Shown here: one piece after another, positions 56,317-64,000 of the stretch | Layout of the letters: every line of letters starts with the position of its first letter | Numbering within the stretch: position 1 is the stretch's first letter | NCBI GenBank assembly: GCA_000002435.2 | Contig: CM018791.1 | Reading direction: 5' to 3' (one strand) | DNA length: 64,000 nucleotides | Origin: Giardia intestinalis | Taxonomy: Eukaryota | Notes under the pieces: generated by a model | Told to the model about the DNA's origin: nothing | The model's input: only the letters and a program-made list of their open reading frames with translations | Databases searched by the model: none | Translations under genes and position numbers: made by a program

Positions 56317-58158
56317 TCACGGTGGAAATGGATTGGGTCGGGCCTTAAATTGCTCAAACACAGGCCTCGCTATACATTTTTCATGCCGTTTGGAAGCAGA
56401 GATGGACCTGGGCCGAGTCCCAGATGCCAACGGATAAATGCTTTCAATGGTATTTGTGGAACTGACTCGGGCACTTTTGCTAAAGCGCCGTGTCTGAGGA
56501 CTGTCATAGGTTTTCAAGCTAGCTGTTTTGGCGCTACTTGATCTACAAGCATGTACACTTTGGGGGTGGTCATGAGCCTTCAACCGTGCCTGTATTCTAT
56601 GTCCTAATGCATGTATTTGGTTAATGTCGGACTCCATCGCGTCCAGAGCTTTATCAGTTTCTCCGCGTAGGATCCATAGCTTATTGAGAGCCGACTTTTT
56701 GGCTGAGATTGCCTGGCAGAGAAGCCTTATTTCTTCGCCGCGCTCCCACGTTCTGTTGGGATCCTCCTTGGCAATTTTAAGCACCTCATCCAAGTGCTGC
56801 TGAAAGCTGCGGAGCTCTGCTTCAGTACTGGTGATTAAGTCTGCTATCATTGGTATTTGCTTACGATGAATAATATGTAGTTTGTTGCTCTGATTACCTG
56901 TGCTCTGCTTTTTCCGCATGCGTGACGAACTCTTTCGAACGCTTCTTCTGCCTGAAGACTTGCGTGACGACGCCCGAGAGGACCCACTGCTGGAGGGAAT
57001 GCTAGTGTTTGGACTTGATAGTAGCCTATGAGTCTGTGGAGGGTTCTCAGAGATGCTGGAAATTGGGGTGCCTTTAACCGTTGTTTCTTTATCAGGTATG
57101 TAAGACGTTGAGGTGAAGCCGTTGGGATAACGTGTAGCTTTTGCTATATTCATCTGTGTTTGTTTGCTTGGAGTTTTAATGGAAGCAACTCTTAAAGCTG
57201 CGCCTGGAGAACTTTGCAAGAAGACGCTATGTGATGTAGGCTCTCCATGTACTTGTTGAAAAGAATCAGATGTCCTTGTTAGGTCTATACTCTGCACTGG
57301 ATCATCTAATTTTACCACGTTCTTGTGCTTGAGCTTTGTAATAGGCTGGACATCAGTAGTGCTGTCGACTGTGTACGCTATCGCAGACGTATCTACACTA
57401 GGTCCAGTAACAGATGTGCTATCAAGCTCGTTGTGAGACGAAAGCGGAGACTGAAATTCGTCATATGCTATTTCGTGGACGATGTTTGCTAGAGTGACAC
57501 AGCTTTTCCGTGTTTTGTCAAGGTCTTCTTGCATGGATCTGAGTTCTTCTGTCAACGACTCAGAAGTCATGGTCTTCTGATCAAGACGTGCTAATAGAGC
57601 ATCATATTTTCTCTGAAGATCTAAAAGTTGCATTCGCGTCTCACCCTCAGTTGTAATTCCCTGTCTACCCAATGTGCTACTGTCGTCCATTGGCCTCAGA
57701 AAGTTAGATGGTGTTGGCGTAGACGTGCTGGGATGTAACTGGTCCTGTTGTGTTGTAAATGCCTTGTGGGCCTTGTTGACACTCTCTTTATCAAAGACTT
57801 CCGAACGCTTTTCTCGCAGCATAGATAAGCCAGTTGGTATAGACCCCAAACCACTGAACTGCTTACCTCTGGAGGGATCTGTGCGTACACACCATGAAGC
57901 GGTAGGAGAGGGCGTCAGTAACGGATGGACTGAAGCTTGTGGAGGCGGTGCAGAGGATGGAAGGGCACTAGATAGCGACGCGCTGCTGGGATAATCATTG
58001 GACGATGCGGTAGCAAGACTTGGGGTTTTAATGCTTGAGGAAGGAGGACTGTGTAGTGCAGTGAATGTGCCTGGAGAAGTGAATGGAAAGGTAGGGTGTA
58101 CAGGTGGTGGGCAGTATGAGGCCAGACGCAGAGCCTCAGAGAAAGATGGTCCTTGCAT
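56317..58158 (-). CDS. hypothetical S/P-rich, coiled-coil protein, 613 aa
   Basis: ATG verified. The N-terminus is Ser/Pro-rich low complexity. It has two coiled-coil blocks and a basic serine-rich segment (SSRKSSGRRSVRKSSSRMRKKQS). Confidence 0.6.
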   Translation of the reverse strand: MQGPSFSEALRLASYCPPPVHPTFPFTSPGTFTALHSPPSSSIKTPSLATASSNDYPSSASLSSALPSSAPPPQASVHPLLTPSPTASWCVRTDPSRGKQFSGLGSIPTGLSMLREKRSEVFDKESVNKAHKAFTTQQDQLHPSTSTPTPSNFLRPMDDSSTLGRQGITTEGETRMQLLDLQRKYDALLARLDQKTMTSESLTEELRSMQEDLDKTRKSCVTLANIVHEIAYDEFQSPLSSHNELDSTSVTGPSVDTSAIAYTVDSTTDVQPITKLKHKNVVKLDDPVQSIDLTRTSDSFQQVHGEPTSHSVFLQSSPGAALRVASIKTPSKQTQMNIAKATRYPNGFTSTSYIPDKETTVKGTPISSISENPPQTHRLLSSPNTSIPSSSGSSRASSRKSSGRRSVRKSSSRMRKKQSTGNQSNKLHIIHRKQIPMIADLITSTEAELRSFQQHLDEVLKIAKEDPNRTWERGEEIRLLCQAISAKKSALNKLWILRGETDKALDAMESDINQIHALGHRIQARLKAHDHPQSVHACRSSSAKTASLKTYDSPQTRRFSKSARVSSTNTIESIYPLASGTRPRSISASKRHEKCIARPVFEQFKARPNPFPP

Positions 58159-58228
58159 TTATGGTTTGATTGTAAAGATTGCAAAAAATCGACGGAAGCC
58201 AGTAGCACTAACTAGCGGTCGTACAATT

Positions 58229-60832
58229 ATGTCTAAAGCAGCTACTGCGCCGTCGGTTTCGGAAGATAAGAGCATAGTGCAGCATTCTACCTTCAGAGCG
58301 TCCCCCTTTCATAAGCGACAACGTAGAGAAAGCATTCTAACTATGTTAGCAATACTATATATGGATGCTGGTAAAATCTTGTTATACCTTCTTCTCAAGA
58401 TACTCCAGAGCATCCTCTCTTTTTGGTACATGTCTACCCTGTCAATCACAATTAATGCATACGCAATTGCATCTCAAAATACCGGATTTTATAGATTGAC
58501 GCGGCGGCATATACATCAGGAATATTTTAAAACATTTGAGGAGGGCTACCGTGCTGGGTTCTCATGGTTAGTGTATCGCATGATTGACAGATTTCTAAAT
58601 CAAAAATCCCTAGCTGTCCATCTAAGCAATGAGGTCGTCGAGAACCCATTCGGTGACACAGTATGTGGCATGGAACACGCCCTAGTGTACATGTGTGTGC
58701 AGTTTTTCATCTTGTCGTTTTGGTCATTTTGTTACTCTATCTTGCAGGCGTATATTCAGCGTATATCGAACGTGATAAAGGACATTATCAACAATCGGAT
58801 TTACATATCCTTTCTTTCTGTCCTCCTAACTCGTCACCTTTCTCAGCCGTACCAACAGCTGGAGCAAGAGTCTTCAGGCGAGCGCGCATCCACCCTGAAC
58901 GAGTACTCTCAGACCATGGCGAATCTCATAACGGGTCTACTTGAGAAGGCCATTCCATCTGTCAGTTACTTCTTAATAATGCTAGTGACGACTCTTTTAA
59001 GAGAAAAGCCGTCCTTGAATAGCCTAAATGACGAGAAGACTAACGTAGCCAACAGAAAACCGAAAAGAAAGGATTCCAAAAAGCCTCAGTTTTCTTCTAT
59101 TGCCTCCACAATCCATGACAGACACGCCCTTGCACTAATACTTATTGCCCTGTTACCGGTTCCTTTTAACGTCTTTGTGGTTGCCTCCGTGGAGCGCCAA
59201 AGGTTTGCGCTCAGTTCTTCCCGCAACTCTGCTAAGATGCAGTCTGTTGCCCTGCTAACCGAAGTAACTTCGCGCTATAGGCTAATAAAGCTGTATGACG
59301 CTGTCTCCTATGAAATAAGTAATGTATGTAAGCTAATGCACAAGTTCAAAAGCGTTGACATTGTCAACATTCTTTTGAGAAGCACGTCTAGAAAGGTTAA
59401 GAGCCTCACTAAAAGGTACACGTCGTCGGTTCTAACCCTGGGATCGGCTATTTATTTATCGCTAAACATCCTAAGCTACAGGCAAATCCAGCAGATAAGA
59501 TACATAGTAAGCACAGTCACAACCCAGATAACAAAGTTATTAGAAATCCCTGGAGTAATAGTAGACATTCACGAGCACTTTGGTGTGATTATTAAGGAAC
59601 TATCGAAACCCCAAGAAGCGGGACTATCAAGTGATAACACTGTTGGGTTTGCGGCCACGTGTGCATACTTACAACAGCATTGGACGGATATTACTAGATC
59701 CTCTTGTAAAGCTGATTCTTCCTTCAGTTTGAAGGCTTGGACTAGGAGCTTCTTTAAGAGAGCAGCTTGCTACATCAATATCGGTATTATTAAAATCATT
59801 CCACCGGTGTTCCGTTACAAGTATCCAGCTAGTCTTGTGACCTCAACAAGTCCGGATATCAATGAAAGGATGTATGTGCAGGAGCTCATGGCTGAATCAC
59901 AACAGTACGTCACCTTGCAAGAGCCTTTCCCTTTAACTCGGCCCATTCAGCCATGTACTCCCACATCTATAGAATTCCGAGACGTCTGCTTTTCTTACAA
60001 AACGGGCTGTGATATTTTGCATGGCCTGACCCTGTCTGTTCATCCCGGCCAGAAGGTTGCTATCGTGGGGAGGTCTGGGATCGGCAAGTCCACGATCATC
60101 AACCTCTTGACGCGGCTATACACCACACCCCAGCCTCAGGACACTTCGTCGCCCGGAATCTATCTCAATGGCAGGGCTATAGGGTCCATCCCACGCGAGG
60201 AGCTACGGAGGCTTATAACAGTCGTCCCGCAGGATAACATACTCATCAGGGGCTCTGCCACGGACAACATCGCCTATGGACAGCCTCGCAAGCTCCCGGG
60301 CTCCCACGCAGAAGAGGAGCAGAGGCGCTACATCCGAGAAGTCATTCGGCTATGCTACGAGGCTTCCCGTGTCGCTGCGGCTGAAGAGCTCCTGGGAGAT
60401 GCACCATACAGTGGAACTCTGCAGGGCCTTTCTGGGGGACAACGCCAACGGGTAGGAATTGCCAGAGCTGTCGCACGTGGAGGCAGCGTTCTTGTGCTCG
60501 ACGAGGCGACGTCGGCACTCGACGAAGAGACAGAGAAGCGGGTCCTCCAACAGCTATTCCGCTCACTGGACCGCAACCAGAGCGTCGTCATTATCAGTCA
60601 CAGACTCTCCACTCTCAGGCATGTCGACCTGATTTATATTCTAGATAATCCAGATGGCAGTGGAGCGCGCGTGGTAGAGTCAGGCTCGTACGACTGGTTC
60701 GTTGCCGAAAGCCAATATCTGAAGGATGCAGGCCAGGATATCTCTGACCTTGTGAGTAACTGTGGCTGTAGCAGCGCAGGTGTTACCCCAGGCTTCTCCC
60801 ATGCAACTCTTGATGCAAAGGGGGATCTGTAG
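58229..60832 (+). CDS. ABC transporter, half-transporter type (TMD-NBD), about 867 aa
   Basis: Walker A is GRSGIGKST, the ABC signature is LSGGQRQRVGIARAV, and Walker B is VLVLDEATSALD. An N-terminal multi-helix membrane domain precedes them. The ORF-track start at 57998 would overlap the opposite-strand 613-aa gene, so I moved the start to the first ATG after that gene's start (58229, MSKAATAPS...). Confidence 0.85.
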   Translation: MSKAATAPSVSEDKSIVQHSTFRASPFHKRQRRESILTMLAILYMDAGKILLYLLLKILQSILSFWYMSTLSITINAYAIASQNTGFYRLTRRHIHQEYFKTFEEGYRAGFSWLVYRMIDRFLNQKSLAVHLSNEVVENPFGDTVCGMEHALVYMCVQFFILSFWSFCYSILQAYIQRISNVIKDIINNRIYISFLSVLLTRHLSQPYQQLEQESSGERASTLNEYSQTMANLITGLLEKAIPSVSYFLIMLVTTLLREKPSLNSLNDEKTNVANRKPKRKDSKKPQFSSIASTIHDRHALALILIALLPVPFNVFVVASVERQRFALSSSRNSAKMQSVALLTEVTSRYRLIKLYDAVSYEISNVCKLMHKFKSVDIVNILLRSTSRKVKSLTKRYTSSVLTLGSAIYLSLNILSYRQIQQIRYIVSTVTTQITKLLEIPGVIVDIHEHFGVIIKELSKPQEAGLSSDNTVGFAATCAYLQQHWTDITRSSCKADSSFSLKAWTRSFFKRAACYINIGIIKIIPPVFRYKYPASLVTSTSPDINERMYVQELMAESQQYVTLQEPFPLTRPIQPCTPTSIEFRDVCFSYKTGCDILHGLTLSVHPGQKVAIVGRSGIGKSTIINLLTRLYTTPQPQDTSSPGIYLNGRAIGSIPREELRRLITVVPQDNILIRGSATDNIAYGQPRKLPGSHAEEEQRRYIREVIRLCYEASRVAAAEELLGDAPYSGTLQGLSGGQRQRVGIARAVARGGSVLVLDEATSALDEETEKRVLQQLFRSLDRNQSVVIISHRLSTLRHVDLIYILDNPDGSGARVVESGSYDWFVAESQYLKDAGQDISDLVSNCGCSSAGVTPGFSHATLDAKGDL

Positions 60833-60982
60833 AAACAAAGCACACCTGGTGGCGAAGACGAGTAAAATAAAAATGCCAGCAAATGAACACTGCGCAGATC
60901 TGATTTCTCGCCTGTTATATTTGCGCTCCCCACAAGCTCTGTACATAAATAGACGCGTCGAAGAGCGGTCTACATAAGACAG

Positions 60983-61552
60983 TTGATAAATAAAATTTTG
61001 TTGTGGGCTGACACGCATTCACCCTTTTTGTTGAAGCCTAATGATAGCAATAATCATAATTTGTACCTTGTAAAGAGTGCTTCGTCCCTGTCTAAGCTCT
61101 ATCCTGAGTTGCAGGATGAGGCAGAACGACGCAAGGCACAGGAGGTCGGCGAGGCCTCTACCGCCGATGTCGATCTGCTGCACTGCAACAGCATCTATCT
61201 GATGGAGCAGTACATACCCCACAGTGCGGTGTTCAAACTATACACATATCGAGGCATGATTATCCACACAGACTTTCGTGCTCCACTTCGTCTCCCAGAA
61301 GCCTTTCATCCAGGAGGATTGTACGAAGCATACGGAGCTTGTGACACTTCGGAGGCTAGTTACCGGAAGATAAATTCACAAACGTGTCTGGAGATCCAGA
61401 CCAGCATCGCATATGCTCCGACTCCCGTGGAATGGCGCCTGGTCCAGAGCGTTGCCCAGCTGATTTACACCTCGCTGGGATTGTCCATACTGGGGATTGA
61501 TGCTCTTTTCGTTTTAATTTCATACAATCGATTTCACTTTATTTTGACCTGA
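60983..61552 (+). CDS. ITPK1-like (inositol-tris/tetrakisphosphate kinase) ATP-grasp domain fragment; lacks the N-terminal domain and a proper ATG (frame opens after a stop at 60950, first ATG only at 61202), so probably a truncated gene or pseudogene
   Basis: From the TTG at 60983, the frame encodes LLKPNDSNNHNLYLV, which matches the ITPK1 KP...SH.LFLV block. It also encodes LMEQYIPHSAVFKLYTYRG, which matches QEFINH.AVL.KV.V.G. RAPL matches RPSL. GLSILGIDALF...YNRF matches GLSLFG(I/F)D.I..N. There is no room upstream for the roughly 150-aa N-terminal domain, because the ABC-transporter stop is at 60832. Confidence 0.4.
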   Translation: MINKILLWADTHSPFLLKPNDSNNHNLYLVKSASSLSKLYPELQDEAERRKAQEVGEASTADVDLLHCNSIYLMEQYIPHSAVFKLYTYRGMIIHTDFRAPLRLPEAFHPGGLYEAYGACDTSEASYRKINSQTCLEIQTSIAYAPTPVEWRLVQSVAQLIYTSLGLSILGIDALFVLISYNRFHFILT

Positions 61553-61635
61553 GAAACATAGATAGATTGGTTTAAAAAATATTTATTTTGAATTTGCCTT
61601 TTGATCAAGTACACGTCAAAGATAGTATATGGATT

Positions 61636-61649
61636 ATATTTAATTAAAA
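61636..61649 (+). promoter_or_regulatory. AT-rich initiator-like element (atatttaattaaaa) immediately upstream of the ATG at 61650
   Basis: AT-rich stretches abutting the start codon recur at most genes in this window. Confidence 0.4.
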
Positions 61650-64000
61650 ATGAAACGATGCATTGCACGGCGAGAGCTTTTACCGGGGCCATTTTTGATT
61701 CCAATCGTAGTCTTTCCTTTTATTGTCCTATTATCCTCATTGAAATTCTTTGGCTTGAACTCCTCGCAGAAGAAGATCTTGCCACTTAGCGCATACTTTT
61801 TACTCATGATTCTCATGAGCTTTGTGGAGCTTGGAGCCCTGTCCTTCGCTTTCGCTCTGCTCCATTACGCCTTTTGCCAAAAGCTTCCTTTGCCACCAAT
61901 TTTCGTCAATCTTTTTTTGATTGTTATCTGCTTGGGGCTCTTTGCAGGAACTCTGTATGATCTTGAATCAGCGAGAGAATGTCAAACTATTTTCACACTG
62001 TCCGTACTCCAAACCTATGTCTTCCACGTTGCATATCCTTCCTGGCCACTTCCGGACAACTATATTGTTGGACGGAAAACATCTACTGAAGGAATGAAGG
62101 TTCTATTTGAAAGTATCCGACTCCATTACAAGCACTGGGCCATTATTTTCAGCATTATATCTGCTTTAATAGTAGCTACCATTATTACATTGGTAATGAA
62201 TTGGGACACCTTCGTTTTTTCTCTCTTTTCACGAAGAACGCTTGTGGCCCAGCACAAGCGCATTCCCGCTCGAGCAGACCTTGCAGATAAGAGCTTACGG
62301 GTTCTAAACAGCATCAGTGGGTTCTCTGTGAAGGCGCCTCCAGCAATCCATCAACTTACCAAATCAGTCCTGTTCTACTCTGAGCAAGCGATTACAAGTC
62401 AGTCCATTGAAATGCAGAAAGCCCAGACACTGTCTTCAGTTTCTGGACAGCACCAGAGCGAAGCCAGTGCCCTAGGGACGCGTATACTTGATGGAGTTGC
62501 AGTTTCAGAACGGCGAAAGTTCCCTGTCAAGCTCTACGATAACCTCTTCACTTCTCCAGAGTTCCTGGTTGCTGCCGTGTGCACTTTATTTTATATTATC
62601 ATCTTGCTTGTGATGATCGTCAGAAAGTCCGTACTCCCGACCTTCCTTGACAGGGGGGCTCCGATGTCGTACATATTTCTGAAGCAGATGGGGCCGTATC
62701 AAGCGTCGCTGTTCAGCACTGAAGATACCTATACCGCTATGGTCCAACGCATCCGGTCACAGTACACGCTGTCTCCAGAGGAGTGCTGGCTTGACCAGCG
62801 GGAGCCCCCCGTTTATCCTCTTCTCTACGCGTCCCACGATGTCTGCTGTGCGTATAACCGTGCCGTTGAGGGCGTGGACTGCACTGCGCTAAGATCAGGT
62901 CCTGCTGACCTGAAGCAAAAGATAAGGTCCGACCCCGGGCTTCAGTCTGACCCCCCAAACGTCGTCATTCTTTTCTGGGAAAGCTTGAGTCTGAGTCCGT
63001 ATTTCTACACAGACGCGTTCCTTCAGGGACAAGAGCAGCTCCTGCGCTCGGCAGATGGTATGCTGAAGGCAACTATCGTCCCTAACCTGCAGAGGTTCGT
63101 ACAAGATGGCATTTCCTTTGTTAATTCGGCCTCCTTGGGACTCCCCACAGTTTCTGGATGGCACTCGCTGATGACTGGCCTGGTCCCCAACTTCTATGGG
63201 GTGAATATGATCACATCTGCCGTCACAGATGTTTATGGGCTACCACAATTCTTTTCAGATGCAGGATATAAGAACTTCTATGTTAACTCTGGCTCGTTTA
63301 CTTTTGACGGACAAGATGCCTGGGTGACTCGCCCAGGTTGGTTTACTGATGTTGTATACTATTACCCAACAGACGAGCAGGCCGAGGAGCTTGGAGTGGA
63401 TCCAGAGAGTGTTCCTCAAACACAATCTTGGGTTGCAGATCGAATAACTAACCGACAGTTTATCACTACCTTCTCTGACGTTGCAGAGAAGGATCCGACC
63501 AAACCTATTCTGGGTGTTTACATGAACGTTGACACCCACACGCCCTTCACCGGGTTCGACAAGGAAGAGTTCTACTCCGACGAAGTACTGGATGGCATGA
63601 TTGCATCCTGCCAAGCCGATCCGGAGACCCCCGAGTGCAGGTTCCTGTTGGATCCGTACATTGTGAAGTACGCTCGGGTCCTAAAGTACTCCGACAAGTA
63701 CTTCCTCGGAAAGACCCTGGAGTTTCTAGAAGCTCATCATCCCAACACCATAGTCGTGATTGTCGGGGACCATGGCACGAGGGTCTCCATTGATAAGAAG
63801 CGTCTAAGAAAAGGCGTAAGTGATGCTTGGACATACAGCGAGGAGTGCCTTACAGCCGCATTTCTCGACGACAACGCCTTTGTTACGGGTGCATACCTAC
63901 GCTACCTCGGCGGCCCAGGAAAAGGCACCTACAACGCACGAGTGTATGACTTCTTTGAAAAGTGGAGAGGGACTGCTTATATGGGCACCACAGACAACCG
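61650..64000 (+). CDS. polytopic membrane protein with C-terminal alkaline-phosphatase-superfamily (sulfatase-fold) domain, LtaS/EptA/MdoB-type phosphotransferase-like; 5'-complete, 3'-partial (runs off window end), at least 783 aa
   Basis: I translated the whole frame by hand from ATG 61650, the first ATG after an in-frame TAA. There is no stop through 64000, and the ORF is absent from the track only because it has no in-window stop. Five or six N-terminal TM helices are followed by PNVVILFWESLSLSPYF. Then SASLGLPTVSGWHSLMTGLVPN has Thr at the position where sulfatases carry the Cys/Ser nucleophile (CTPSR...LTG). After that come YMNVDTHTPF and ...LEFLEAHHPNTIVVIVGDHGTRV (the GDHG motif). Confidence 0.7.
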   Translation, partial: MKRCIARRELLPGPFLIPIVVFPFIVLLSSLKFFGLNSSQKKILPLSAYFLLMILMSFVELGALSFAFALLHYAFCQKLPLPPIFVNLFLIVICLGLFAGTLYDLESARECQTIFTLSVLQTYVFHVAYPSWPLPDNYIVGRKTSTEGMKVLFESIRLHYKHWAIIFSIISALIVATIITLVMNWDTFVFSLFSRRTLVAQHKRIPARADLADKSLRVLNSISGFSVKAPPAIHQLTKSVLFYSEQAITSQSIEMQKAQTLSSVSGQHQSEASALGTRILDGVAVSERRKFPVKLYDNLFTSPEFLVAAVCTLFYIIILLVMIVRKSVLPTFLDRGAPMSYIFLKQMGPYQASLFSTEDTYTAMVQRIRSQYTLSPEECWLDQREPPVYPLLYASHDVCCAYNRAVEGVDCTALRSGPADLKQKIRSDPGLQSDPPNVVILFWESLSLSPYFYTDAFLQGQEQLLRSADGMLKATIVPNLQRFVQDGISFVNSASLGLPTVSGWHSLMTGLVPNFYGVNMITSAVTDVYGLPQFFSDAGYKNFYVNSGSFTFDGQDAWVTRPGWFTDVVYYYPTDEQAEELGVDPESVPQTQSWVADRITNRQFITTFSDVAEKDPTKPILGVYMNVDTHTPFTGFDKEEFYSDEVLDGMIASCQADPETPECRFLLDPYIVKYARVLKYSDKYFLGKTLEFLEAHHPNTIVVIVGDHGTRVSIDKKRLRKGVSDAWTYSEECLTAAFLDDNAFVTGAYLRYLGGPGKGTYNARVYDFFEKWRGTAYMGTTDN

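Follow-up and report, generated by a model that had tools for sequence, protein, structure and literature searches.

Giardia intestinalis contig CM018791.1 (GenBank assembly GCA_000002435.2) carries, near the end of the 64,000-nucleotide (nt) stretch analyzed here (the window), a short reading frame annotated as hypothetical protein GL50803_27713. Here, we report that this feature is very probably a nonfunctional truncated duplicate (a pseudogene fragment) of the single ITPK1-like ATP-grasp kinase gene of Giardia, GL50803_16912. This reading is carried by homology, breakpoints, lesions, the mosaic pattern of phylogenetically informative sites, and occurrence in three lineages. A transcribed pseudogene fragment is an ordinary kind of object; this one tells somewhat more than most through its clean record of ectopic gene conversion, the third-gene stub at its junction, and a parent resembling an overlooked Giardia ITPK1.

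The window has a GC content of ~48%, tiny spacers, and long open reading frames (ORFs) on the + and − strands; exact protein matches place it in strain WB. The frame of the fragment is closed upstream by a TAG (60950 to 60952), stays open from 60953 to 61549, and ends at a TGA (61550 to 61552), giving 199 codons. An initial annotation, made from the sequence alone, had described a truncated ITPK1-like ATP-grasp fragment whose frame opens 118 nt after the stop of an ABC transporter gene, with its first ATG downstream of a conserved KP block. Both positional claims hold, as the ABC stop occupies 60830 to 60832, the frame contains only two in-frame ATGs (61202 and 61256), and both are preceded by the KP block FLLKPNDSNNHNLYLV. 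The 189-amino-acid (aa) product named there corresponds to the mechanical TTG-initiated ORF at 60983 to 61552 and falls short of the full open frame. The ORF from the first ATG is identical, by protein match, to GL50803_27713 (GL50803_0027713; our handle, P0008).

The 199-aa translation matched a small family of Giardia proteins (E values, 1.6e-116 to 5e-51), including P0001 (96% identity over 95% of the frame; E value, 1.6e-116), the representative of a Giardia cluster containing full-length 340-aa proteins. Cluster look-up returned one intact 340-aa paralog per genome, GL50803_16912 (GL50803_0016912; P0006) in strain WB, DHA2_154427 in DH, and GLP15_5131 in P15, so the search for an intact copy elsewhere that the initial annotation had advised was successful. 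GL50803_0016912 is on a 4.0-Mb WB contig and GL50803_0027713 is on a different, 1.97-Mb contig. P15 also has a comparable fragment, GLP15_3468. The fragment aligns to residues 128 to 307 of the WB protein (hereafter, the parent) and is ~98% identical to it (4 differences in ~169 shared residues); one example of a peptide unique to the fragment is the stretch spanning GIDALFVLISYNR. Searched alone, the 199-aa fragment had no match in a Pfam scan (at an E value of ≤1) or in a PDB sequence search, and an Rfam search also gave no match. The initial annotation would have abandoned the ITPK1 interpretation if no profile matched; that outcome was literally obtained with the 199-aa piece, but the test is too strict, since the fragment reaches PF05770 membership solely via its ~98% identity to the parent, which does match the profile itself. 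With that route, and with the parent placed by family, profile, and structure searches, the description as a truncated ITPK1-like ATP-grasp fragment is borne out.

The parent scored 23.0 bits against Pfam PF05770 (cut-off, 23), and an alignment-based word search returned G. intestinalis proteins only. A profile built from Giardia proteins alone had no significant match in PDB and, when run against 1.8 billion representatives, reached only four relatives from beyond G. intestinalis; P0047, which is among the four and was reached at an E value of 8e-5 over 1.8 billion proteins, is itself a clear PF05770 member (E value, 8e-27). Widened with those relatives, the profile matched human ITPK1 (E value, 7.6e-15), plant ITPKs (~1e-11), and PPIP5K2 (1.6e-6), and its alignment to human ITPK1 spans the N-terminal IHK region and the C-terminal GIDxx...IDxNxFxG region. 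An AlphaFold model of the parent (pLDDT, 89.6; pTM, 0.87) had ITPK1 structures from human and potato as its top Foldseek matches in PDB (2qb5, 2q7d, and 8oxe; E value, ~1e-14 [1.5e-14]; TM score, 0.60 to 0.64). The DH and P15 orthologs are named inositol-tetrakisphosphate 1-kinase in UniRef. The parent, the single ITPK1-like gene of Giardia, seems to encode a strongly diverged ATP-grasp protein of the ITPK1 family, with predicted kinase activity. It has in common with ITPK1 (PF05770 and PF17927; 2q7d, 2qb5, and 8oxe) the three-domain ATP-grasp fold but differs in that the Giardia family is highly divergent, its Pfam score lying just at the cut-off. ITPK1 was scored as absent from Giardia in a 2021 survey (Table 1 of PMC8024741). 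Given that score, the parent is a modest finding in itself, as it looks like an overlooked ITPK1 of Giardia, and as a divergent member of that kinase family it would bear on how Giardia makes higher inositol phosphates.

The fragment differs from ITPK1 in having neither an N-terminal domain nor the last Mg-ligand motif (IDxN) and in matching no family on its own. Parent residues 1 to 127 are missing, as are the last ~33; the term “C-terminal half” used in the initial annotation was therefore right about the N-terminal truncation and overlooked that at the other end. No N-terminal ITPK1 coding sequence was found anywhere in the window. The same annotation held that the N-terminal domain cannot be encoded here, and the absence of its 127 codons from the locus agrees with this and also disposes of its suggestion that initiation at a non-AUG codon might restore the full protein. 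The fragment has no ATG ahead of codon 203. In a three-way alignment, a 5-nt deletion at 61516/61517, after codon 307, shifts the frame, and further downstream the fragment has lost another 2, 3, and 10 nt in separate deletions, so that the C-terminal ISYNRFHFILT is an out-of-frame reading of the parent YIIDINYFSG... region. The conserved blocks retained are FLLKP...H..LYLV, EQYIPH..VFKLY, RAPL, and GIDAL. All blocks quoted in the initial annotation are present, but YNRF is not an ITPK1 block and comes from the out-of-frame IIDINYF region.

By hidden Markov model alignment to human ITPK1 and the parent model, the fragment keeps K147, H154, K214, R228, and D302, and it loses D314 and N316 (in IIDINYF) through the 5-nt frameshift. 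As for ATP-grasp proteins and ITPK1 in general, we take D302, D314, and N316 to be Mg ligands and K147 and K214 to bind the nucleotide, which leaves the nucleotide- and metal-binding set incomplete (K147, K214, and D302 present; D314 and N316 absent). The three-domain fold is incomplete as well, lacking the N-terminal domain (residues 1 to 127), strands 309 to 317, and helix 326 to 336 of the parent model. As encoded, the predicted product cannot be a kinase, because the N-terminal domain is missing and the 5-nt deletion removes the last Mg-ligand motif. In P15, the TGA of the fragment falls seven codons earlier than the WB stop. An intact paralog in the same genome, homology ending at a breakpoint, and disabling lesions are together what a pseudogene presents. 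The “decaying gene relic” offered as one option in the initial annotation thus stands as to the relic but not as to the decay, since the body has been homogenized by gene conversion (see below). The tail differs between WB and P15, and the body has been overwritten by conversion, which makes its dN/dS uninformative on purifying selection.

The window from 60976 to 64000 is 94.9% identical to a WB-like parent-locus contig (L005) that encodes exactly GL50803_16912, which argues that a segmental duplication of ~3.6 kb, with a sulfatase gene as its main cargo, has the fragment at its left edge. The sulfatase gene lies downstream at both loci. The parent locus has the order LCAT (+), RING (−), ITPK1-like (+), sulfatase (+), and NEK kinase (−), and both the window and the P15 fragment locus have the order ABC (+), fragment (+), and sulfatase (+). 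In P15, homology extends over L007 (5797 to 9432) and L008 (5403 to 9050), ending ~30 nt before the sulfatase stops (unit, ~3.6 kb). The ABC gene is outside the duplication, and its accession number and that of the fragment are consecutive (KAE8303138.1 and KAE8303139.1). No ITPK1 homology was found upstream of 60976.

At that point, the copy abuts the 5' stub of a third gene, designated gene X. A tblastn search with the gene X protein of L016, a more distant Giardia contig, matched the window at 60873 to 60965 (84% identity; E value, 1.4e-13) over its first 31 residues. L016, the only Giardia contig returned by an ABC search dominated by bacterial transporters, carries gene X intact (1507 to 1947), with a product of at least 147 aa, following the ABC gene. 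The remainder of gene X is found neither in the window nor at the P15 locus, the stub ORF is open in WB, AII-like contigs, and P15, and a Pfam scan assigned gene X to no family. The junction zone carries 8 substitutions relative to the parent, 7 of them GC to AT, which create the AT run ATAAATAAAATTTT (60986 to 60999). All but one of the eight are common to WB, AII-like contigs, and P15; position 60983 varies among fragments. The initial annotation missed this edge of a segmental duplication that includes the sulfatase gene, together with the C-terminal disabling, the third-gene stub, and the homogenized body.

Four loci were aligned, namely, the fragment and parent loci of WB and of P15 (assemblage E; NCBI assembly), with WB parent DNA taken from Logan contigs L005 and L006. 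Identities and informative sites are given in Table 1. The fragment body and most of the sulfatase gene group by strain, and the island between them groups by locus. Since the island and the shared junction follow locus while the body and sulfatase follow strain, the duplication is older than the split of assemblages A and E and has mostly been homogenized since then, within each lineage, by ectopic gene conversion. Paralogs are closer within a lineage than orthologs are between lineages despite the older duplication, which is the pattern of concerted evolution. Protein-level comparison of the ITPK tract was made with reference proteins, and the P15 pair has this pattern too, independently of WB. 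Over 62278 to 64000, the window and the WB-like parent-locus contig show 100% identity, and the P15 paralogs there are 95 to 100% identical; the two P15 sulfatase paralogs fall in one 90% cluster that does not contain the WB proteins. A patch of the sulfatase gene (62078 to 62177) is less homogenized (72% in WB, 88% in P15). The GC content of 61498 to 61649 is 0.24. Unconverted pseudogene DNA has a GC content of 17 to 24%, against 51% in the converted body, a contrast consistent with mutation biased toward AT and countered, in the body, by conversion from a donor that is GC richer and under constraint.

At positions 61257, 61314, and 61315, the parents of sub-assemblage AII (L009 and L010) have the states of the fragment, which yields T221M and E240G. 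The WB and P15 parents share a state at 61314 that is found in none of the fragments. A third difference, C243 versus Y, is a WB-parent-specific change at 61323, so that AII parents and the fragment both have M221, G240, and Y243 and the WB parent does not. Because the AII parents share the fragment states, with the WB and P15 parents sharing the other state at 61314, transfer from the fragment to the parent (pseudogene to gene) is suggested in AII. It is possible, if somewhat doubtful, that the fragment is an active recombination partner, with ectopic conversion running in both directions and the dead fragment having written amino acid changes (T221M, E240G, and, on this reading, C243Y) into the functional gene of AII. 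If so, the pair, with its sharply bounded tracts and unconverted islands, would allow homologous recombination to be followed at one natural locus in a protist for which sex and recombination are still debated. The mechanism of gene conversion in Giardia has been called unresolved (PMC2829556).

Assemblage B has a second ITPK1-like copy, its body 97 to 100% identical to its own parent and with its own larger decayed island (L013, 5482 to 6530; L014, 1 to 660; L015, 1283 to 1535). The tail of this copy differs (…TTDNLYLSRTVRYNSQ…) and begins at about codon 272. Its disabling mutations vary by isolate, with a frameshift in GSB and a TAA at codon 125 in L014.

GL50803_27713 is among seven ORFs reported by transcription start site (TSS) sequencing and RNA-seq to have unusually long 5' untranslated regions (UTRs), in this case, 216 nt (Table 1 of PMC3792122); most Giardia 5' UTRs are under 20 nt (PMC3792122). 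Subtracting 216 from 61202 would put the TSS at ~60986, the first base of the AT run, and this run at the decayed junction is a probable transcription initiator. The leader is former coding sequence and contains three out-of-frame ATGs (61041, 61116, and 61167). Sterile transcripts are common in Giardia (PMC3792122), and the fragment transcript is most likely a sterile RNA. In the published table, GL50803_27713 and GL50803_29595 (406-nt UTR) share a scaffold start (CH991771, 260,060), and the rows cannot be reconciled with the window (PMC3792122).

We propose the following sequence of events. An old segmental duplication would have copied ~3.6 kb, beginning at codon 128 of ITPK1 and finishing ~10 codons short of the sulfatase stop. 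In the ancestor that assemblages A and E share, this copy would have been joined, just downstream of the ABC transporter gene, to the first 34 codons of gene X. The useful cargo would be the sulfatase paralog, with the ITPK1 piece as a by-product left dead by N-terminal loss and by the 5-nt frameshift, which takes away the last beta-hairpin with two Mg-ligand residues. Outside conversion tracts (the 21-nt junction, and the tail and spacer), the copy would have decayed to ~60% identity, with indels and a GC content of 17 to 24%, while recurrent ectopic conversion kept the body (500 bp) and the greater part of the sulfatase gene 95 to 100% identical to the parent locus on the other chromosome, with at least one transfer from fragment to parent, probably, in AII. 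The AT-rich decayed junction would act as an initiator, giving a transcript with an atypical 216-nt leader that is most likely sterile.

Several observations weigh against this account. An ATG-initiated ORF of 109 to 116 aa is open in WB, AII-like contigs, and P15, and a small protein or regulatory RNA is conceivable. The locus is transcribed, and GL50803_27713 is reported to rise 1.4-, 2.3-, and 4.0-fold on contact with Caco-2 cells (PMC7461913). Constraint on the fragment is immeasurable, as sequence received by conversion from a parent under constraint looks like the outcome of purifying selection. A collapsed or switched path in the assembly could account for part of the 100% identity over 62278 to 64000, L005 and L006 being Logan short-read contigs and not the reference; that such mosaics occur is shown by L001 (see below). 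Finally, the assemblage B copy reaches farther left than the A/E breakpoint, to codon 108 or beyond, and has a different decayed island, so truncation at codon 128 may have come with the duplication or after it.

The ORF and its expression would suit a functional small protein of 116 aa from ATG 61202, or a longer one with a non-AUG start, acting as a partial ATP-grasp module that is regulatory or dominant-negative and induced by host contact. We consider this improbable. It agrees with the protein-coding annotation in WB and P15, with a defined TSS and transcript (PMC3792122), with the rise alongside Caco-2 cells, and with the ORF from M203 being open in three lineages. Such a protein would, however, start inside the C-terminal beta-sheet and lack strands 309 to 317, helix 326 to 336, and D314/N316; its tail is out-of-frame junk that differs in length between WB and P15, and the leader is long for Giardia and carries three out-of-frame AUGs. 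The openness of the body is explained by conversion, and RNA-seq reads, including the Caco-2 signal, could possibly be misassigned over a 98%-identical paralog. A noncoding role has a similarly slim chance, with the junction promoter and transcript giving the sulfatase paralog a long leader or an alternative promoter, or with the transcript feeding RNA interference against the parent. The Giardia polyadenylation motif is AGTRAAY, and a regex scan with this consensus found no such motif on the + strand from 60868 to 61800, leaving none between the fragment stop and 61800. The published transcript span of 692 nt (PMC3792122), counted from ~60986, would by our arithmetic end at ~61677, inside the sulfatase ORF, and since the unconverted island covers the sulfatase promoter, the two sulfatase paralogs may be regulated differently. 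Set against these points, a typical AT-rich initiator lies directly at the ATG of the sulfatase gene itself (TTTAATTAAAAATG), nothing shows a continuous transcript, the published table coordinates are ambiguous, and, as noted above, sterile transcripts are common (PMC3792122).

An artifactual or apparent truncation, through an assembly indel or misjoin or an N-terminal exon supplied by cis- or trans-splicing, is hardly credible. In its favor, contig L001 (Logan SRR3596234) encodes the 318-aa P0001, in which an N-terminal domain is joined to the fragment tail, and Giardia trans-splices a few split genes. L001 was rejected as a fuller version of the window locus, as it sits in the parent gene context, with parent-locus upstream genes. 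It is a parent/fragment/parent mosaic that switches inside 62- and 43-nt stretches identical between the paralogs, and because the switch points fall in such stretches, it is most likely a k-mer assembly chimera, with P0001 as its product. The stub, junction, body, and tail recur in P15 (NCBI assembly) and in two independent AII-like (A2) metagenome contigs, and the frameshift or indel in the assembly offered as an alternative in the initial annotation was rejected on these grounds. A trans-spliced or intron-containing gene was also rejected: the 3' splice/branch motif of Giardia had no match within 2 mismatches at the junction, its matches across the window were below chance, and the reported TSS lies at the junction. 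No separate locus with only the missing 5' part was found; the sole other homolog is the complete gene, which makes a split gene unnecessary.

Like duplicated pseudogene fragments at the edges of segmental duplications, the fragment is truncated exactly at the breakpoint with an intact parent elsewhere, shows frameshifting indels and AT decay in part, and has hitchhiked with an intact neighbor gene; it differs in that most of the copy is undecayed and continually homogenized with the parent and in that it is transcribed from an initiator seemingly arisen from the decayed junction. The sharp tract boundaries beside indel-rich unconverted islands are those of concerted evolution by ectopic conversion. 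Classical examples of pseudogene-to-gene conversion or concerted evolution are CYP21A1P/CYP21A2 and the globin genes, and the likely Giardia counterpart is the movement of fragment variants into the functional gene of AII. Unlike these cases, the Giardia pair lies on different chromosomes of a tetraploid, binucleate protist, and no harmful conversion of the parent is known.

In annotations, GL50803_27713 should be marked as a fragment of GL50803_16912, and GLP15_3468 as one of GLP15_5131, in place of their present status as independent hypothetical proteins, and RNA-seq and proteomic signals on fragment genes, such as induction on host-cell contact, need paralog-aware reanalysis. Ectopic gene conversion between Giardia chromosomes is cleanly exemplified by this locus pair, for which the tract boundaries have been mapped. 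Short-read assemblies yield chimeric “proteins” like P0001 across such repeats, which calls for caution with protein catalogs.

Table 1. Features at the right end of the window, with identities and informative sites (strain:locus) from the four-locus alignment
Feature	Position	Strand	Basis or comment	Paralog identity	Ortholog identity	Strain:locus
ABC transporter gene, 867 aa	58229..60832	+	Identical to WB KAE8303138.1; Pfam ABC_tran, E value 8e-24			
AGTAAAA, Giardia polyadenylation signal-like	60861..60867	+	Regex scan; ~30 nt past ABC stop			
Gene X 5' stub, 34 codons (MPANEHCADLISRLLYLRSPQALYINRRVEERST, then stop)	60873..60977	+	Stop TAA 60975-60977 on junction			
Junction/unconverted boundary zone	60976..60996	+	First 21 nt of ITPK-derived DNA; GC 0.17			
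ITPK1-like fragment, in-frame copy of GL50803_16912 codons 128-307	60977..61516	+	Alignment to parent			
Gene-conversion tract (fragment body)	60997..61497	.	98% identical to WB parent, no indels; ~85% to P15 fragment; GC 0.51	93-100%	79-88%	63:1
Annotated ORF GL50803_27713, 116 aa, from first in-frame ATG	61202..61552	+	Identical to KAE8303139.1			
Unconverted island: decayed ITPK 3' end, spacer, promoter, first sulfatase codons	61498..61677	.	Sliding identity	52-62%	78-95%	1:48
Frameshifted tail, ISYNRFHFILT, then stop	61517..61552	+	Parent DNA read out of frame; three-way alignment			
Sulfatase-family paralog (“LtaS-like” gene of the initial annotation), runs past window end	61650..64000	+	Pfam Sulfatase, E value 9e-18			
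Sulfatase, homogenized part	62178..64000			93-100%	73-94%	199:0

A bacterial promoter/terminator scan was discarded as irrelevant to a eukaryote. The real start of the ABC gene is the ATG at 58229. This start is annotated inconsistently, as the WB model begins at ATG 58229 (867 aa) and the DH and P15 models are ~943 to 944 aa long. The mechanical TTG-start ABC ORF (944 aa; extension, 57998 to 58228) overlaps the 5' end of a divergent 613-aa gene (56317 to 58158, minus strand).

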